A stretch of 64,000 nucleotides of DNA from Candidatus Parcubacteria bacterium (GTDB lineage: Bacteria; Patescibacteriota; Patescibacteriia; PEXW01): NCBI GenBank assembly GCA_003597955.1, contig QZJU01000020.1, forward strand, positions 13,459 through 77,458, read 5' to 3'. Of the stretch, positions 10,347 through 44,485 are shown piece after piece. The position numbers and the translations under genes are program-made. Below the pieces are notes generated by a model. That model did not search any database and had not been told where the DNA came from. It saw nothing but the letters and a program-made list of their open reading frames with translations. Each line of letters begins with the position of its first letter. Positions within the stretch are counted from its first letter, which is position 1.

Positions 10347-10775
10347 TTAACTTAACTCTTCAAAGTCAATCAGATTTTCGCCCCCCTTTTCCTGAATTCT
10401 GGCAATTACTTTCTTTACGTCCAAATTTGGAAACTTTGCCTGAATTAATTCTTTGGCATAGGCCAAATCCCCAGCCTGTTTTTCGCCTTCGGCGGCTAAA
10501 CTATCAAAAGCTTTGTGGCCACCGTAAGCCCCACAATCCAGGTGGTGAATTAGCAGAACTTCCTTTATGCCGTGAAGGTTATGGGAAATATCGATCTGTT
10601 TTAAAATTATTTCCGAGCAGGCTTTATCCCCTTCCACCAGGCCTTTGGTAACGCCGGCGAGGCTGACCAAATCGTAATTATCTTTCAAACTATTGGATAC
10701 CAAAAAATCCCTTATGGCCGAATGGAAACGGAAATCAATGCAAGTAAAAACTATGGCTTGGCAGGAATGGGACAT
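10347..10775 (-). CDS. Hypothetical protein with a beta-carbonic-anhydrase-like Cys-x-Asp-x-Arg and His-x-x-Cys-Gly zinc-site pattern
   Basis: CIDFRF near the N-terminus and HHLDCGAYGG about 75 aa later. 142 aa. The assignment is tentative. Confidence 0.35.
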   Translation of the reverse strand: MSHSCQAIVFTCIDFRFHSAIRDFLVSNSLKDNYDLVSLAGVTKGLVEGDKACSEIILKQIDISHNLHGIKEVLLIHHLDCGAYGGHKAFDSLAAEGEKQAGDLAYAKELIQAKFPNLDVKKVIARIQEKGGENLIDFEELS

Positions 10776-10868
10776 ATTTTTTTCGGTTTAAAGTTAAGGA
10801 TTTAAAAATATCAAAAGTTTTATAAAAAGAAAAGCCGCTAGTCCTTTTAACTAACGGCCAAATTTTAT

Positions 10869-10970
10869 CCCGCACCACTTTCCAGCAAAACGTTGTTATA
10901 CACTTTAAGATATTCATCCGGGCAAATATCTTCAAAATTAATTCGAGATTTAAGTGAAAAGTGGTGCGGG
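10869..10970. repeat. MITE-like palindromic element A (102 bp) with 15-18 bp terminal inverted repeats cccgcaccactttccagc / gaaaagtggtgcggg
   Basis: Perfect inverted termini. It shares its terminal sequence with elements B and C but has a different interior. It lies 4 nt downstream of the stop of the 10974..11516 gene. Confidence 0.7.
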
Positions 10971-10973
10971 ATT

Positions 10974-11516
10974 TCATGGTGAAAGATTGTAGACTTCCTC
11001 CGGGGTTTTGGCGCGGATGAAATAGGTCCGCATTTTTATCTGGTAGTCAACGTGCAAAAGCGGCACAATCCGCTTTCGATCCCAGCCGGTTTTTTCGGCG
11101 ATCAACCTAGCTGTCGTAACCGCGTTGGCCACGACTTGAAAAATATCCATGTGAACTTCGCTGGCCATGCCGCACGGCCAATGAGCCAACAGAAAAATCG
11201 TCGGGATCTTTTTTAGGCCGCGAGTTTTTACCAAACCCGAAAGCAATTGTTCATGGGCCCGAAATTCCCGCGGGATCGGGATCTCCGGGTTCAAACGCAA
11301 GGGTCCGCCATTGTAGGCTTTAAGATGTATTCGAGGGTTTGGTAATTGCCGCCTGACAAAATCAAACATATCACTGGAGCGGTCACAATCACCGCACATA
11401 ACTAAAATTGTTCCGTTGTAAGCCGCCGCCTGAAGCTTGTCTGCTTTCACATTGGCAATGACGCCAGCAGTTTGCCACCAACTAATCGTTGACTTCTCAT
11501 TGTCGGAAATAACCAC
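10974..11516 (-). CDS. Hypothetical protein, second beta-carbonic-anhydrase-like paralog
   Basis: CGDCDRSSDMFDFVRR and LAHWPCGMAS motifs. 180 aa. Flanked by repeat elements A and B. Confidence 0.35.
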   Translation of the reverse strand: MVISDNEKSTISWWQTAGVIANVKADKLQAAAYNGTILVMCGDCDRSSDMFDFVRRQLPNPRIHLKAYNGGPLRLNPEIPIPREFRAHEQLLSGLVKTRGLKKIPTIFLLAHWPCGMASEVHMDIFQVVANAVTTARLIAEKTGWDRKRIVPLLHVDYQIKMRTYFIRAKTPEEVYNLSP

Positions 11517-11597
11517 GCTTTCCTCCGTGAAAAAATGATTTTTAAAAAACGATGTTGATTTTGAAAAACCAGTTTATCAGAAATCCAAAAAAAGTCA

Positions 11598-11702
11598 ACC
11601 CCGAACCACTTTCCAAATAAAACCTTAAGTTTAGTGTAAGGTTATTTGCCTAATGAACATCTTGGTACTAAGTGTTGGCGTTTTGCTGGAAAGTGGTGCG
11701 GG
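11598..11702. repeat. MITE-like element B (105 bp), homologous to element C, TIR ccccgaaccactttccaa / ctggaaagtggtgcgggg
   Basis: About 85% identical to the element at 22292..22396 over its full length (read by eye). It has inverted termini. Confidence 0.75.
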
Positions 11703-11740
11703 GTCAAGGCCAACTAAATCTGACTTGAAAATTCTTTGAC

Positions 11741-13768: not shown

Positions 13769-15091
13769 TTAATTGGCTAACAAATCCGTTACCGCTGCCG
13801 GAGGCGTGGTGTCGCCGGTCGGGGGCAGGTTTTCGGGCGCGCCAGGCGAAACGCTGATTCTTTGAGACATTATCGTAAACGGACTGGCGCAATTTACGCT
13901 GGCCGTCCAAACCATTGGAATAAAATCCGCCTGGGCATTAACCACGGCCGGGCCTTGGGGGAAGCGGTTACAAATGCCGTCCGAAGTCAGTGCGATGCGG
14001 TCGCTCCAGGCTTGGGTGTCTTTATTCCATTTTCGGTAATAAATGTTGTTGTTATTTCCGGTTGAGCTCTCTTGCCTGACATAAAACAAATACAAATCAT
14101 TGCCGTGCTTGGATAGCGAAGCGTGCCAGTCCAAAGGATCATAAGGTAAAACTTCGATGTCGGCGTGCTGCCATGTGCCTTGGCCATTATTGTAAGTTTT
14201 CCAGGCGTGACGCAGTTTAGTGCGGTTGTTATAAACCAAATGCAATTCGCCGTTGACATAGGTCATGCTGAATTCTCTTTCGGCGCCAGTGGCTTCATTG
14301 CTGACAGCGATTGAATCGTCATTGGGCACAAAAGCCGAACCGTTCCAAATAAAATAGCGGTAATCCAAATTTTGGCCGGGAGTCGCGGAAATGTAATGAA
14401 TAACCACGGCTGGCTGGTTACCGATCATGAATGAACCGACGCGGACATCTTCAATATTCAACTGGGCAACCCAGCCTTCCTGATCAAACGACGCCCCGCC
14501 ATTCGTGGAGCGAAAATAGCGAACATTGCCGACCGGACTGTTGCTGGTGCGGTAAAAAATCCAGATATTGTTGCTATCTTGCGCCAAGATGTTAGAACGC
14601 GTCCAGATATTTGCAGGAATGAACGAGGAAGTCAAAGTAATCGGGCTGTTTAAATCCGTCGCGGTTTCGCCGGGCGCCCGGATTTTCCTAAACCAGACAA
14701 TGCCTGCGCTGGGACCGGGATCAGTCAAATATAAATTATCTTGGCTGTCACCAGAAATGGAAGCGTGAAAATCCATATAACCTTTTACTGTCAGAGCGTC
14801 AGGCTCGGTGGCGTTCCAGGTCAAACCGCCATCATTAGACTTTTTAAAATCATTGTACCGGCTGTTAGGAAAAGCCAGCCAAAGATCATTCGGATCGTTT
14901 TGTGACATAAACAGTCGGTAGCGCGGTATGGTTAAGGTACAGCTGTAATTTGAACAAGTACTGACCTGCACGGGCGCGCTGACCGCGTCCCAAACAAAAA
15001 CCCCATACAAAAAGAATAAGCCCCCAACTAAAGCTGCTAAGCTTGAGATTTTAGAGACTAATAAAAAATAATTTTTTGTTTTAATTTTCAT
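13769..15091 (-). CDS. Secreted/membrane-anchored BNR (Asp-box) repeat beta-propeller protein, sialidase-like fold
   Basis: N-terminal TM and Asp-box motifs SNDGGLTW and STNGGASF. 440 aa. Confidence 0.5.
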   Translation of the reverse strand: MKIKTKNYFLLVSKISSLAALVGGLFFLYGVFVWDAVSAPVQVSTCSNYSCTLTIPRYRLFMSQNDPNDLWLAFPNSRYNDFKKSNDGGLTWNATEPDALTVKGYMDFHASISGDSQDNLYLTDPGPSAGIVWFRKIRAPGETATDLNSPITLTSSFIPANIWTRSNILAQDSNNIWIFYRTSNSPVGNVRYFRSTNGGASFDQEGWVAQLNIEDVRVGSFMIGNQPAVVIHYISATPGQNLDYRYFIWNGSAFVPNDDSIAVSNEATGAEREFSMTYVNGELHLVYNNRTKLRHAWKTYNNGQGTWQHADIEVLPYDPLDWHASLSKHGNDLYLFYVRQESSTGNNNNIYYRKWNKDTQAWSDRIALTSDGICNRFPQGPAVVNAQADFIPMVWTASVNCASPFTIMSQRISVSPGAPENLPPTGDTTPPAAVTDLLAN

Positions 15092-18417: not shown

Positions 18418-18900
18418 ATGGCAAACAAGAAATTGCGCATTGGTTGGTTCACCTTCTCCTGCTGCGAAGACAGCACGATTATTTTTACGGAACTGCTGAA
18501 CGACCATTGGCAGGAATGGAAAAAACTCTTGGACATCCGCCACGCACGGGTTTTGCAGGACAAAAATGTTCTGGACGAGCTGGATGTGGCTTTCATTGAG
18601 GGCGCTTTAAATTCCCAAAAACAAGTGGACATGGCCAAGGAAATCCGTTCTAATGCCAAAAAGGTGGTGGCGATCGGCGCTTGTGCCTGCACCGGCCTGC
18701 CTTCGGTCCAAAGGAACACTTTTCCAGAAAAGGAAGCCAAAGAAATCAAACCCTTAGTGAAAAAATTCAATTTCCTGCCCAAAGGCCTGAAATTAGCCGA
18801 GGCGATCAAGGTTGATGTGAATGTCCCGGGCTGTCCCATGGACGAAAAAGTCTTTTTAAACGCCTTGGATAGTCTTCTGAAAGAATTCAAAATAATTTAA
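18418..18900 (+). CDS. [NiFe] hydrogenase small subunit (minimal, NuoB-like, proximal cluster only)
   Basis: FSCCEDS ... GACACTG ... GCP cysteine motifs. It is only 160 aa and sits immediately upstream of the large subunit. Confidence 0.72.
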   Translation: MANKKLRIGWFTFSCCEDSTIIFTELLNDHWQEWKKLLDIRHARVLQDKNVLDELDVAFIEGALNSQKQVDMAKEIRSNAKKVVAIGACACTGLPSVQRNTFPEKEAKEIKPLVKKFNFLPKGLKLAEAIKVDVNVPGCPMDEKVFLNALDSLLKEFKII

Positions 18901-18903
18901 TTT

Positions 18904-20205
18904 ATGCATACCGTTGATTTATCCCTAACCAAAGAAATCACTAAAGTCGAAGGCTCAGCCACCCTGGACGTAAAAATCAAGGGCGGGCAAGTGGAATATT
19001 GCCGATTTGGCATTACCGAATACAAGCGTTTTTACACCCAAGCTATGCGCGGTAAGCCTTATCGCGGTTTGCCTGCCTTGTTGGCGCGAATTTGCGGCAC
19101 CTGCTCAAATGCCCACCTACTCTGCAGTATTGAGGCTTGCGAGCACGCTTTAAGCGTCCAGCCCAGTAAACAGACGCAAATTCTGAAACACTTAACCATG
19201 TATGGCCTGAATCTTCGCGACCATGCTTTGCACCTATACCTTTTCGCTTTGCCAGACATGTACGGAAAAGATTCTTTTCTTTCTTTTGACGAAAATGATT
19301 CGGAGCAACATCAAATTTTACACGACGCTTTTGATATTAAAGCGGCTGGCAATTATCTTTCCATTATCGTTGCCGGACGGAGCGTGCACGCGGTGAATCC
19401 CAGCATCGGCGGTTTTTTAAAAGTTCCCTCCGAGTCCGAAGTTCAAGAAGCTATCCACAAACTCGAGCATGTTAGACCGGCTATCTTGCGCACTGTGGAA
19501 AGGTTTGAAAGGTCCGAGTTTAAGTTTGACCGCAAAACCCACTTTATGGCCTTGATAAACAATCCCTTTTCTTTTCTCGATGGCGAAATTGCCAGTGACT
19601 TGACCCCTGAACGCATCCCGGAAACAGATTTTCGGAACCATTTGGAGCGCGTCGTTATACCCTATTCCCAAGCTTCAGGCTATGAATTTAAAGCGGAAAC
19701 TTACATGGTCGGCGCTTTAGCCAGAATCAATTTAGCCAAAGACTCCTTGCACCCCAAAACCAAAGCTGCTTTGGAATCAACTTTAAGAAAATTCCCATCA
19801 ACCAACATCTTCCATAACAATCTCGCCCAAGCCGTTGAATTGCTCCATTGTGTTGACCAATCTTTGGACTATCTACAAAATACTAAGTTCACCAAAGAGC
19901 CTTTGGCTTTACCCCGGCGCAAGTCGGGCGTGGGCGTCGGTGTGATTGAGGCGCCGCGCGGGACTTTGTACCACAAAGTAGAAATTGGCGAAAACGGGCT
20001 GGTTATCAAGGGTGAAATTGTGGTACCGACCGGCCAAAACCAGATAAATATCGAGCAGGATATGGCCAGGCGCTTGCAAGAAATGCTGCCCGCCGATCCA
20101 GACAAAGAAGCCATCCAGCTGGAATTGGAAAAAATCATCCGGGCTTATGACCCGTGCATGAGTTGCGCTTCGCATTTCCTGAAAATCAAATTGCAGACAG
20201 CTTAA
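18904..20205 (+). CDS. [NiFe] hydrogenase large subunit (group 3-like)
   Basis: N-terminal RICGTCSNAH (L1) and C-terminal DPCMSCASH (L2) Ni-Fe ligand motifs. Confidence 0.9.
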   Translation: MHTVDLSLTKEITKVEGSATLDVKIKGGQVEYCRFGITEYKRFYTQAMRGKPYRGLPALLARICGTCSNAHLLCSIEACEHALSVQPSKQTQILKHLTMYGLNLRDHALHLYLFALPDMYGKDSFLSFDENDSEQHQILHDAFDIKAAGNYLSIIVAGRSVHAVNPSIGGFLKVPSESEVQEAIHKLEHVRPAILRTVERFERSEFKFDRKTHFMALINNPFSFLDGEIASDLTPERIPETDFRNHLERVVIPYSQASGYEFKAETYMVGALARINLAKDSLHPKTKAALESTLRKFPSTNIFHNNLAQAVELLHCVDQSLDYLQNTKFTKEPLALPRRKSGVGVGVIEAPRGTLYHKVEIGENGLVIKGEIVVPTGQNQINIEQDMARRLQEMLPADPDKEAIQLELEKIIRAYDPCMSCASHFLKIKLQTA

Positions 20206-22263: not shown

Positions 22264-22291
22264 AATGCTGATATTTTAGCATAGACCTTGA

Positions 22292-22396
22292 CCCCGCACC
22301 ACTTTCCAAAATAAACTTTAAGTTTTTTGTAAGGCTATTTACCTAATAAACATATTAGTGATAAGTGTTGGCGTTTTGCTGGAAAGTGGTGCGGGG
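22292..22396. repeat. MITE-like element C (105 bp), homolog of element B
   Basis: TIR ccccgcaccactttccaaa / tttgctggaaagtggtgcgggg. The interior is near-identical to B. It sits in the divergent promoter region between the EamA and NUDIX genes. Confidence 0.75.
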
Positions 22397-22507
22397 TTGA
22401 CAAAAACCAAAAAATCCTTTAATATCATCAGCTAAGTCTGCTCAAAAATTCTTTTAAAATTTGAGCCTAATAAACCGATCATTACATAAACCACTGGAGG
22501 TTTTCGA

Positions 22508-23194
22508 ATGGATGTTGAGACAAAATGGGGTTTCCCAGTAGTCAATGCGGAAAACATTTTCCAATATTTGGAAAGTGTTAACATTAAGCCTTGGCCTCAA
22601 ATCGAGCCAACGGTCTCACTCGATGAATACCTAAAGCGAGACTTGACAGATGATCAAAAAGGCGAGCTCCGCTTCGCGCCCAAAGCAGAAGTAATGTTCT
22701 TAGAACAGCCGAATGGCCAACCTTACACGGCCTTTCGTTCCACCCAAAAACCTTGGGCCACGACCTTCTGCCTATTGCCCGGCGACCTAATCCCGATCGT
22801 GGCTGAATGGAAGCACGGCGCCGAATGCATCTCTTTGGCTCCGCCTTCAGGCTCGCTTGGCAAAGCAGACAATGGCTCCATGAAAAATTGCGCCAAACGG
22901 GAATTTGAAGAAGAAACCGGTATTGAGCTATCGGGGATTATTCCTTTAAGCCAGGCTGGGATCGCTGTCAACTGTCGAAGCTCCGGCCAGAGATTCTTCC
23001 CCCACCTTGGCATCGCAGCCACGCCAATTTCCCCAGGCCCAACTAAACTTGACCAAACCGAAAACATCAGCTTAGTTTTAATACCCCTGAAGGATTGGCT
23101 AATGCTGATTGAAGAGGGCGGAGTGGTTGAAAATTGCTCAATCTCAACGACCCTTATGGCTCTTCAGTACTTACAGCGCCTCGAGCTGAAGTAA
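22508..23194 (+). CDS. NUDIX hydrolase with an N-terminal extension
   Basis: Nudix box G...AKREFEEETGIEL. 228 aa. Confidence 0.6.
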   Translation: MDVETKWGFPVVNAENIFQYLESVNIKPWPQIEPTVSLDEYLKRDLTDDQKGELRFAPKAEVMFLEQPNGQPYTAFRSTQKPWATTFCLLPGDLIPIVAEWKHGAECISLAPPSGSLGKADNGSMKNCAKREFEEETGIELSGIIPLSQAGIAVNCRSSGQRFFPHLGIAATPISPGPTKLDQTENISLVLIPLKDWLMLIEEGGVVENCSISTTLMALQYLQRLELK

Positions 23195-25213: not shown

Positions 25214-25302
25214 GGTGCTTTTAGCTTACGATTTTTTGCTCAAAAACACAAGAAAAAAGCGGACCTTAATTGATCCGCTTTTAAAAACTAAAGAACGCTT
25301 TA

Positions 25303-25376
25303 TGCGGGCAGGTGGAATTGCACCACCGACGTTCGGGTTAATAATCCCCGACATTCTACTCCTGAGTTATACCCGC
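25303..25376 (-). pseudogene. tRNA-like element (possible degenerate tRNA)
   Basis: It has a 7-bp acceptor stem GCGGGTA/TGCCCGC, a perfect T-arm GGTGG-TGCAATT-CCACC, and U8, A14, G15 and G18. The D-stem cannot pair canonically and the anticodon stem has a mismatch. The putative anticodon would be UAU. Confidence 0.25.
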
Positions 25377-25606
25377 AATTTTTATAGCCCCGGGCTGGAT
25401 TTGTCCCGCCATAGAGGCGGGATGCCGCCGACTTTTGTTGACTTCAATAGATGGCGGCAAACCAGCAACCTTCGGTAAATTCCTGCACATGCCCATTAAT
25501 ACTGAGGCTCCCTGCCTGTCGCCAGGCAGGTACCGACTAAGCTACCGGGGTGACTTTTTTGCGAATTTTCACCTTAGCATACGCGCCGTTTTCAAGTCAA
25601 AAAACT

Positions 25607-43662: not shown

Positions 43663-44069
43663 GGGGATGTTCATAAGTTGATAGTTTGCTTTGACAATTA
43701 GCCTGCGGACCGCCTTTTTCGGGAATGGCGTAAAACTTTCTGAAAATTAGACAAATGCCAATTCATTTGTCAGCAAAGTGAAGACTGCATTGGCCAAAAC
43801 CTTTGCCGTCCCAGCTTTCGCTCCGGTTGTTGCTTAAAAACCAATAACCCATTCGCCCCGCAGCCTGATGCGGGATTCGCGAGTGTTAAATTTCAGGCTG
43901 GATATTTTTCACCGCGCGCTGAAAAATATTGAGAAACTTGCGCGCTTTGGCGTTTTGCGATCTTGGTTGTTCCCTGCGCAAAATGTCGAAAACCCTTGAA
44001 CAACCTATGTCCGAAGAAAGTTAATTGCCGGTAAACTAGACAGGGGTGCAAGACCCCTCATCTCCACCA
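43663..44069 (+). ncRNA. ssrA: tmRNA (ssrA)
   Basis: The 5' GGGGATG pairs with the 3' CATCTCC-A-CCA, giving a 7-bp acceptor stem with a G3·U70 wobble (the alanine identity element). A T-arm AGGGG-TGCAAGA-CCCCT directly precedes it. A D-analog UUCAUAAGUUGAUA follows the 5' strand. It sits immediately downstream of smpB. A candidate tag ORF ends ...FAPVVA-TAA. Confidence 0.72.
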
Positions 44070-44218: not shown

Positions 44219-44485
44219 ATGAACTTCAAATTTGTTTACATTTTGCAAAGCTTAAAAGACCACCGGCTCTATATTGGATTTACCGAAAAGCTCAAAACTC
44301 GGATGAAGGCACATGCAGCCGGTCAAAATCAATCTACCAAAAACCGAAGACCATTGAAATTAATTTATTTCGAAGGCTTTTTATCCGAAATTGATGCTCG
44401 AAGACGAGAAAAGTACTTCAAGTCCACCAAGGGGAAAACCACTCTCAAAATAATGCTTAAAGATCATTTTAGAACCCAAGAGTAA
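44219..44485 (+). CDS. GIY-YIG nuclease family protein (second copy)
   Basis: FKFVYILQS...RLYIGFTEKLKTRMKAHAAG...LIYFEGF...ARRREKYFKS. An AAGGGA RBS precedes the ATG at 44219. Confidence 0.8.
   Translation: MNFKFVYILQSLKDHRLYIGFTEKLKTRMKAHAAGQNQSTKNRRPLKLIYFEGFLSEIDARRREKYFKSTKGKTTLKIMLKDHFRTQE

Follow-up and report, generated by a model that had tools for sequence, protein, structure and literature searches.

The DNA considered here (the window) is a stretch of 64,000 nucleotides from contig QZJU01000020.1 of a Candidatus Parcubacteria bacterium, and the subject of this report is a family of short palindromic elements, three of which (A, B, and C) lie within it. Elements A and B flank the second of two neighboring minus-strand genes, which encode proteins of 142 and 180 amino acids (aa). 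An earlier note on this region, made from the sequence alone, had described the two elements with their common inverted termini and had seen in both proteins a pattern reminiscent of the zinc site of beta-type carbonic anhydrases (beta-CAs). It had also proposed that the elements and the 180-aa gene form a composite or cargo-like unit, or that the repeats had donated the promoter and terminator of the gene. The two elements around the 180-aa gene are confirmed, and element C, about 11 kb away, is added to them (Table 1).

Two carbonic-anhydrase-like genes and three palindromes

The 142-aa protein is a member of the Pfam family Pro_CA_2, which it matches with an E-value of 1.6e-16 and 61 bits (gathering cutoff 30), and it carries the canonical CxDxR and HxxC motifs as C12-x-D14-x-R16 and H78-x-x-C81-G. 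The 180-aa protein has C41-x-D43-x-D45 and H112-x-x-C115-G; thus, the HxxCG part of the pattern described earlier holds for both proteins, but CxDxR holds only for the smaller one. The 180-aa protein has no match in Pfam or NCBIfam, and a Pfam search with 85 sampled members of its family gave no match to a carbonic anhydrase family. (A word-indexed search retrieved 4 relatives, and a full profile search retrieved 656 cluster representatives of ~180 aa.) Across the 85 sequences, residues C41, D43, G70, H112, and C115 are invariant, and the Cys...His-x-x-Cys pattern of putative Zn ligands (C41, H112, and C115) is conserved. The arginine of the CxDxR dyad is replaced, giving CxDxD, with D45 present in at least 90% of the family; the residue that follows D45 is R in the window protein and Q in the consensus, so the arginine of the window protein is out of register. 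An AlphaFold2 (AF2) model was made with the 85 sequences, replacing a mediocre version made with 4 (pLDDT 69), and the predicted structure of the 180-aa protein has the beta-CA alpha/beta fold.

As the earlier note had remarked, the two proteins are otherwise divergent. BLASTP aligns them with an E-value of only 0.55, but a profile-to-sequence comparison gives 84% probability and an E-value of 7.7e-6, with the Cys and His-x-x-Cys motifs aligned. Because the BLASTP match is weak and the profile alignment is significant, the sequences indicate that the proteins are distant homologues, not recent paralogues. The suggestion that they be compared with beta-CAs by profile and structure has consequently placed the 142-aa protein in Pro_CA_2 and the 180-aa protein in the beta-CA fold; the beta-CA-like reading is supported at the level of the fold, and catalytic equivalence is putative. 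Relative to beta-class carbonic anhydrases and Pro_CA_2 (PF20393), the 180-aa family differs in having CxDxD rather than CxDxR and in lacking a Pfam match, and it is an unnamed branch of the fold that is conserved beside a Pro_CA_2 gene. In the literature, PF20393 led only to unrelated papers on ProcA2. Genes of the 142-aa and 180-aa types are adjacent in three species, and the 142-aa neighbor is also present in the related loci L043-L048 and L091. In a fourth species (locus L093, 925-1734), a 178-aa homologue lies beside a gene for a 269-aa protein that weakly matches CDCA (the cadmium carbonic anhydrase repeat); the gene for ATP synthase epsilon is also a neighbor.

The palindromes stand out from the composition of the window. 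The 15-mer CCGCACCACTTTCCA, with up to two mismatches allowed, occurs six times where 0.24 occurrences are expected, and none of 100 shuffles contained six or more. The six occurrences make up three inverted pairs, with at most one mismatch per pair of arms, and these pairs are elements A, B, and C. Each element is ~105 bp long, has the same 17-bp termini, and folds as one long hairpin (-40 to -46 kcal/mol; z -5.6 to -7.6). An Rfam search of the elements, at gathering and at permissive thresholds, matched no family. B and C are ~85% identical and carry their interiors on the same strand. The interior of A is inverted relative to both; A aligns better when reverse-complemented, and its interior is different. 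A and B are of different sub-lineages and mutually inverted.

The positions of the elements relative to the genes differ in two details from those given earlier. Element A lies in the 3' untranslated region (UTR) of the 180-aa gene, between its stop codon (10974-10976) and its terminator, and is separated from the stop codon by 2 nt rather than 4. The tetranucleotide on its left is TTTA, and that on its right (10972-10975, overlapping the stop codon) is TTTC, a match in three of four bases. Element B, which had been placed in the 5' leader of the gene, instead abuts the upstream edge of the predicted -35 hexamer TTGACT (11598-11593, minus strand), 37 nt past the stop codon of an ABC-2 permease gene. 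B thus falls within the -35 box, and the first four bases of TTGACT are one copy of its flanking duplication. For both B and C, promoter scans call a σ70-like promoter that directly abuts the element; the interiors of the two elements are on the same strand, but their orientations to the TTGAC target are opposite. A fourth copy lies on the same contig just past the end of the window (locus L100, 2676-2780), with flanks TCAA/TTAA; it abuts a TTGACA-16-TATGCT promoter within a row of small minus-strand open reading frames (ORFs).

Table 1. Positions of the elements, their flanking tetranucleotides, and associated genes and signals (window coordinates unless a locus is named)
Feature	Position	Strand	Basis and remarks
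142-aa protein, Pro_CA_2 family, putative beta-type carbonic anhydrase	10347..10775	-	ORF; Pfam PF20393
Intrinsic terminator of the 180-aa gene	10833..10859	-	11-pair stem then TTTCTTTTT; terminator scan; downstream of A
TTTA, left flanking repeat of A	10864..10867		read from sequence
Element A	10868..10971		104-bp palindrome, termini TCCCGCACCACTTTCCA...TGAAAAGTGGTGCGGGA; nhmmer E 9.5e-18
180-aa protein, unnamed family with predicted beta-CA fold	10974..11516	-	ORF
Predicted σ70 promoter of the 180-aa gene	11571..11598	-	TTGACT, 16 nt, TG-TAAACT; promoter scan
TCAA, left direct-repeat copy of B	11595..11598		right copy 11704-11707; read from sequence
Element B	11599..11703		105-bp palindrome; nhmmer E 3.4e-19; filled-versus-empty comparison
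TTGA, left direct-repeat copy of C	22288..22291		right copy 22397-22400; read from sequence
Element C	22292..22396		105-bp copy; nhmmer E 2.5e-20; not listed in the earlier note
Predicted promoter of the NUDIX-like gene 22508-23194	22397..22425	+	TTGACA, 17 nt, TAATAT; 10/12 matches; abuts C
RayT-like Y1 (HUH) transposase, 209 aa	23234..23863	-	motifs HVHLIV (HUH) and KYVQNNP (Tyr); candidate trans-acting enzyme
Prepilin insertions (relatives)	L023 2642-2790 and 3800-3955; L064 960-1100; L012, L016, L026, L056, L081, L001
In-frame pilin insertions (relatives)	L016 3538-3641 and 4592-4695; L001 6258-6361; L081 2416-2519

Element-free relatives of the locus

Insight into the history of the locus comes from two relatives, L043 and L091, in which the 180-aa gene has homologues of 177 aa (46% identity) and 176 aa (48% identity), respectively. 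In both, the gene order is ABC ATPase (ABC_tran), ABC-2 permease, the 177/176-aa gene, the 142-aa Pro_CA_2 gene, ABC ATPase, and FtsX permease, with one extra gene between the ABC-2 permease and the 176-aa gene in L091 only. Neither locus contains an element anywhere, including the positions orthologous to A and B, and their intergenic spacers are ~100 nt shorter than those of the window. Upstream of the gene, L043 and L091 read ggggcTTGACTttt...TAGACTggtttttcaaaacc, while the reverse strand of the window reads ggccTTGA-element B-TTGACTttttttggatttctgaTAAACTggtttttcaaaatc. That is, the empty sites have a single -35 box, ggggcTTGACT, and a -10 box (the element-free promoter is TTGACT...TAGACT in both), and the window has ggccTTGA, then B, then TTGACT. 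Because the empty sites hold one TTGACT and the window has TTGA on both sides of the element, B lies inside a pre-existing -35 hexamer. Downstream of the gene, the stop codon in L043 and L091 is followed directly by an intrinsic terminator; in the window, A sits between the two.

This sequence comparison indicates that the pair of 180-aa and 142-aa genes is ancestral at the locus and that A and B are later, independent insertions. The comparison with relatives that the earlier note had called for therefore tells against its own proposals. The promoter was not donated by a repeat, since its -35 and -10 boxes are already present at the empty sites and the -35 box was regenerated by the TTGA duplication; nor was the terminator, a separate structure that lies downstream of A and that the relatives have kept. 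A composite unit is excluded because A and B have their own flanking repeats, are of different sub-lineages, and are mutually inverted. It is true that two copies, inverted with respect to each other, stand on either side of the 180-aa gene, and a small GIY-YIG remnant is similarly bracketed in L026, L058, and L081. However, two element-free species carry the same gene in the same neighborhood, the repeats of A (TTTA/TTTC) and B (TCAA/TCAA) are separate, with no single duplication shared outside the pair, and the two interiors differ. In addition, the elements encode no transposase, as those of a composite transposon would. Joint mobilization of the 180-aa gene by A and B is thus exceedingly improbable.

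A family with a narrow choice of landing sites

A pattern scan of the GTDB species genomes (~185,000 genomes) and of Joint Genome Institute (JGI) metagenomes for the element termini found them in Candidatus Kerfeldbacteria PEXW01 and CAINXF01, in Patescibacteria JBAZBR01 (whose genome is syntenic with the window and is the richest in elements), and in several metagenome contigs. A profile built from 25 copies gave 65 placements at 37 distinct sites, spread over at least 5 genomes; the size of the family across these sources is 25-38 copies. A scan of viral contigs for the element yielded nothing. Matches in Marinobacter, Microscillaceae, Melainabacteria, Aminicenantes, and others were set aside, as they share only the 11-mer ACCACTTTYCA within palindromes that otherwise differ, at nhmmer E-values of 1e-3 or worse. 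(Palindromic repeat families of ~90-105 nt that are these organisms' own were seen in L006, L027, L028, and L030 from Marinobacter; L004, L005, L029, L033, and L037 from Microscillaceae/Chitinophagales; L009, L034, and L035 from Melainabacteria; L002; and L021; in all of them the stems contain ACCACTTTYCA and the remainder of the stem differs.) The ACCACTTTYCA matches in other phyla are probably coincidences with unrelated families, as expected by chance across 185,000 genomes, and the element family is restricted to a small Kerfeldbacteria-related clade of Patescibacteria.

Family members are 99-106 bp long and have the terminal arm YCCNGCACCACTTTYCA. At each of its positions, the 17-bp terminal stem is Watson-Crick paired in 29 or more of 33 copies, and three positions co-vary: position 1 (C-G in 23, T-A in 7), position 4 (A-T in 16, C-G in 15), and position 15 (T-A in 15, C-G in 14). 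Past position 17 the pairing decays, and the interiors fall into several sub-families. The element is bounded by perfect 4-bp direct repeats at 27 of the 37 sites (15 TTGA, 9 TTTA, 2 TTCA, and 1 TTAA), and at 5 more sites the repeats match in three of four bases. It should be noted that this tetranucleotide is a direct repeat and not an extension of the palindrome. When sites are oriented by the tetranucleotide, the target context is G(-7) G(-6) S(-5) TTNA, element, TTNA C, with C(+5) in 25 of 31 sites, and the interior faces either way relative to the target (8:7 and 8:6). Two other classes of element were considered and rejected: integron attC sites, since direct TTNA repeats stand where RYYYAAC/GTTRRRY cores would be expected and there is no integrase nearby, and elements with IS3-type TG...CA ends that include the flanks, since the flanks are direct and not inverted.

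Insertion at these sites is polymorphic: A and B are absent from the orthologous positions in L043 and L091, and L064 has pilin paralogues with and without an element. The family thus has the features by which MITEs (miniature inverted-repeat transposable elements) are recognized, namely a length under 300 bp, no coding content, terminal inverted repeats, a target duplication of fixed length, and insertion polymorphism, and the earlier description of the repeats as MITE-like mobile elements is supported by the flanking repeats and the empty sites.

The first class of landing site is the promoter. Seventeen of the 37 sites abut TTGA(C) on the right, and a TAnnnT sequence lies 16-18 nt downstream at 14 of these 17; on the opposite flank the count is 0 of 17, and 2000 shuffles gave a mean of 2.0 and a maximum of 8. 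The orientation of the interior relative to the target is random in this class (8:7). At one orthologous promoter site, two genomes whose flanks are ~90% identical carry insertions of different sub-families, which suggests that the same site has been used repeatedly. Within the window, GGNTTGAC is enriched ~2-fold (14 sites versus 6.7 expected; 14 was reached in 0 of 100 shuffles). Its sites include 26904, 31611, 34867, 43390, and 52202, and element junctions account for only two of the 14. This sequence may be an extended -35 motif of the clade and a pool of unoccupied targets.

The second class is found in relatives, as the window has no pilin gene. Twelve of the 37 sites are at the GGN TTY ACN (Gly-Phe-Thr) codons of type IV prepilin genes (N_methyl motif). 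Upstream of each such insertion, the gene's original leader is left stranded (for example MKQGLKRGF or MRKTFQKSKSGF); its reading frame continues into the left arm of the element until it meets a stop codon, which lies at or beside a new start codon. The right arm reads [ATG/GTG/TTG] AAA AGT GGT GCT GGG followed by TTY ACN, or (M)KSGAG|FTLIE, and the start codon is present in 11 of the 12. In one sub-family the interior encodes a conserved 22-residue leader, MNFxxKxINNQxxRPFLKSGAG. The tandem pilin paralogues of L064 illustrate the arrangement. In these, 75 nucleotides after TTTAC are identical; the leader of one is plain (MTKRKG|FTLIEL), and the other has MIFKRRGF, then the element, then TTTACT, with the stop codon of the stranded ORF overlapping the new ATG (TAATG). 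In four pilin copies, element plus repeat come to 108 nt and are open in frame, giving a 36-codon insertion in the leader. (A profile search with the element-encoded leader gave matches dominated by generic prepilin N-termini, with at least 8000 candidates.)

Other arrangements are also seen. A full copy may stand in tandem with a 41-nt mini copy. In L026 (3434-3972, equivalent to L058 3168-3700) and in L081 (2033-2519), two elements bracket the ORF of a small GIY-YIG nuclease, which appears to be frameshifted in L026; they are followed, upstream of a pilin gene, by the 41-nt mini copy, which consists of the arms only and occupies the TTTA site after its regeneration. In L054, a full copy (13882-13980) and a 53-nt mini copy (~14079-14131) are found near the 5' end of a minus-strand large-subunit (LSU) rRNA gene, identified as 23S by an Rfam LSU match of 2051 bits. 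Here the copies form helix extensions, and they may be intervening sequences.

The closeness of the copies to promoters and to the starts of pilin genes, their strong hairpins, and the maintenance of the stem by covariation could also be explained if the palindromes do not move at all, but are fixed cis-regulatory or structural modules of these genes, such as operator-like sites, insulators or terminators, or RNase III sites. This explanation is hard to reconcile with presence and absence in close relatives, where the empty site has a single tetranucleotide. Moreover, the same element occurs in a promoter, in a 3' UTR, in coding sequence, and in 23S rRNA, it occurs in both orientations, and there are tandem and truncated copies. 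Immobile modules are consequently a very improbable account of the family.

Probable insertion mechanism and relation to known elements

Taken together, these findings make it probable that A, B, and C are each a copy of a non-autonomous palindromic transposon, ~100-105 bp long and of MITE/REPIN-like kind, moved by an enzyme acting in trans, whose 4-bp TTNA duplication regenerates the -35 box. Sequence comparison shows the target-derived 4-bp repeat, insertion in either orientation, exact empty sites that hold the tetranucleotide once, and, for the great majority of surviving copies, the context GG-N-TTNA-C. Insertion at TTGAC, the core of a -35 element, duplicates TTGA and so leaves an intact TTGACa-16/17 nt-TAnnnT promoter on one side; together with the C(A) that comes next, the duplicated TTGA makes up the -35 core again, and so the promoter survives. 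B entered the promoter of the 180-aa gene in this way and C that of the 22508 gene, while A went into TTTA at the stop codon and has the terminator of the gene downstream of it. The rest of the process may be pictured as follows. The trans-acting enzyme would make 4-bp staggered cuts in the target, as in classical MITE logic. At both junctions, the first base (C) and the last bases (GGG) of the element would give back the context of the target. The asymmetry of this context (GG...C) probably reflects a preference of the enzyme together with survivorship in a compact genome, where an insertion would be tolerated only if a promoter, a prepilin leader, or a stop codon is regenerated by it. Part of the GG-N-TTNA-C asymmetry may indeed be survivorship, as GGNTTGAC is itself enriched and the GG in pilin genes is a Gly codon.

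Such insertions may also have consequences for the neighboring genes. B would move the sequence upstream of the -35 box 109 bp away, and its hairpin (-41 kcal/mol), followed by UUGACUUUUUUU on RNA reading through from the ABC operon, could act as an insulator or terminator. A would add a stable hairpin to the 3' UTR.

The candidate for the trans-acting enzyme is a RayT-like protein encoded ~840 nt from element C, with another gene between. It matches Pfam Y1_Tnp with an E-value of 5.1e-10 and 40 bits (cutoff 23), reaches 68 bits with the NCBIfam model for REP-associated tyrosine transposases (RAYTs; REP, repetitive extragenic palindromic), below the cutoff of 80, and matches TnpA_REP in the PDB at an E-value of only 0.042. 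It has a ~60-residue low-complexity insertion between the HUH and catalytic Tyr motifs, and its gene directly follows a class II aminoacyl-tRNA synthetase gene in an apparent operon. A 52%-identical orthologue is present at the same syntenic locus in JBAZBR01, which has two paralogues, and from these sequences the gene appears to be vertically inherited and single-copy-like. A tblastn search with RayT against all fetched loci found it in the window only, and no element lies within +-10 kb of RayT homologues at eight loci (L087-L090 and L095-L098). (On another Patescibacteria contig, L097 4472-5269, a heliorhodopsin gene is directly downstream of a RayT homologue.) In ~75 kb of the contig, the only annotated genes for mobile-DNA enzymes are this transposase and a small GIY-YIG gene. 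The link between the RayT-like transposase and the elements is circumstantial, and the enzyme is a candidate.

This candidate raises the question of whether the family is a REPIN-RAYT system. REPINs (REP doublets forming hairpins) are ~100 nt long; their inverted ends are conserved, the spacer varies, and compensatory changes keep the hairpin (PMC3116915; bioRxiv 10.1101/2021.07.10.451892). The present elements are likewise ~100-nt doublets of inverted conserved ends that form one long hairpin with compensatory changes. As in the REPIN-RAYT systems of Pseudomonas, Enterobacteria, and Neisseria, there are dozens of copies, mostly intergenic, and a RayT-like gene, which here may be single-copy and vertically inherited. 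Under this alternative, the hairpins would be copied as single-stranded DNA by the resident RayT-like Y1/HUH enzyme, cutting beside TTNA at the foot of the hairpin. The architecture fits, the RayT-like gene is close to C and has its syntenic orthologue in the element-richest genome, and there is no DDE transposase in view. However, the arm YCCNGCACCACTTTYCA lacks an internal palindrome, whereas a REP arm is a ~14-bp palindrome with a GTAG or CGTC tag, and this tag is absent; the RayT gene is not flanked by elements, either here or at the eight loci; and its NCBIfam RAYT score falls short of the cutoff, with a TnpA_REP match of only 0.042 in E-value. Furthermore, the tetranucleotide is target-derived on both sides (TCAA/TCAA at B and TTGA/TTGA at C, with the same interior strand) and the orientation is random, which would not be expected from a strand-specific Y1 peel-and-paste reaction in which the element brings its own right-end cleavage site. 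The target-derived 4-bp repeats, the Patescibacteria host, and the sharp association with -35 boxes and prepilin codons also set the family apart from REPINs. Because the RayT gene is not flanked by elements, the arms are not palindromes, and the target-derived tetranucleotide goes with random orientation, a MITE moved by a staggered-cut transposase is ranked above a REPIN moved by RayT, which is rather unlikely but is kept alive by the symmetric covariation and the long persistence of the family.

Several observations weigh against a MITE moved in trans by such a transposase. Neither the loci retrieved nor ~75 kb of the contig showed an autonomous element, that is, a transposase gene enclosed by the same termini, and no DDE transposase is annotated in that ~75 kb. 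The symmetric covariation of the termini at positions 1, 4, and 15 would be more usual in REPIN-like elements that depend on a hairpin than in DDE MITEs. For a MITE, the persistence is also unusually long, since the same arms are kept in genomes with RayT orthologues of only 52% identity. The flanking repeat of A is imperfect (TTTA/TTTC), the 23S rRNA copies in L054 lack a flanking TTNA repeat, and all of the promoters are predictions from sequence.

Comparison with other short palindromes helps to place the family. The Correia elements of Neisseria (CREE/NEMIS) are MITEs that measure ~100-150 bp, have terminal inverted repeats, and duplicate a short stretch of target; they lie next to genes, can influence promoters, and give rise to transcribed hairpins that can be RNase III substrates. 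They duplicate TA, and their own ends bring promoter hexamers; here, in contrast, a -35 box that was already in place is restored by the duplicated TTGA. To our knowledge, no cognate transposase has been identified for either the Correia elements or the present family. Rickettsia palindromic elements (RPEs) are palindromes of ~100-150 bp that are tolerated within protein-coding genes, sometimes in frame, and the four 108-nt pilin insertions in relatives resemble them in being read through in frame. Unlike RPEs, the coding insertions here are at one codon position (prepilin Gly-Phe-Thr), and the end of the element encodes a leader ending in Gly. With IS200/IS605 elements and palindrome-associated transposable elements (PATEs) the family shares tetranucleotide-specific insertion beside a hairpin and a Y1 transposase in the genome. 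Those elements, however, are strand-specific, do not duplicate their target, and have a left hairpin distinct from the right one, whereas the elements described here have one symmetric hairpin, insert in both orientations, and have the same target-derived tetranucleotide on both sides.

A further idea, which is tentative, is that the element is adapted to "self-healing" insertion, with ends that restore whatever is cut by integration at GG-N-TTNA-C. In prepilin genes, the arm and interior of the element would supply a ribosome-binding site, a start codon, and the 22-residue leader up to MNFxxKxINNQxxRPFLKSGAG|FTLIE, with expression coupled to the ORF of the original leader, now stranded. If this is correct, the element would be a long-lived, host-tolerated, and possibly domesticated replicator in ultra-small genomes, one that rewires pilin leaders and insulates promoters, and it may be maintained by the resident RayT.

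Elsewhere in the window are an NiFe-hydrogenase gene pair (18418-20205, plus strand), encoding the small (Oxidored_q6) and large (NiFeSe_Hases) subunits and conserved in the syntenic JBAZBR01 locus; a tRNA-Ile gene with anticodon UAU (25302-25377, minus strand; ARAGORN), which scores only 38.9 bits with Rfam tRNA; a tmRNA gene (43663-44069, plus strand; Rfam 81.8 bits) with SmpB just upstream; and, ~150 nt after the tmRNA gene, a gene for an 88-aa GIY-YIG protein (~44219-44485, plus strand).

Although the element is MITE/REPIN-like in kind, its sharply defined landing sites (-35 hexamers and prepilin processing codons), together with termini that rebuild them, are new. Neither this family nor MITE/REPIN-like elements in Patescibacteria were found described in the literature searched, so that REPIN/MITE-like biology is extended to a phylum without such reports there. 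Nor did that literature yield anything relevant on MITEs that target TTGACA, on palindromic elements tied to pilins, or on Kerfeldbacteria. The genomes of Patescibacteria are roughly 1 Mb and have little room for selfish DNA. Landing only where the duplication or the termini repair the damage, be it to a -35 box, a prepilin leader, a stop codon, or an rRNA helix, would explain how mobile DNA survives in such streamlined genomes. In addition, the element junctions are a marker for real promoters in an uncultivated clade, and the family touches the type IV pili on which these organisms depend.

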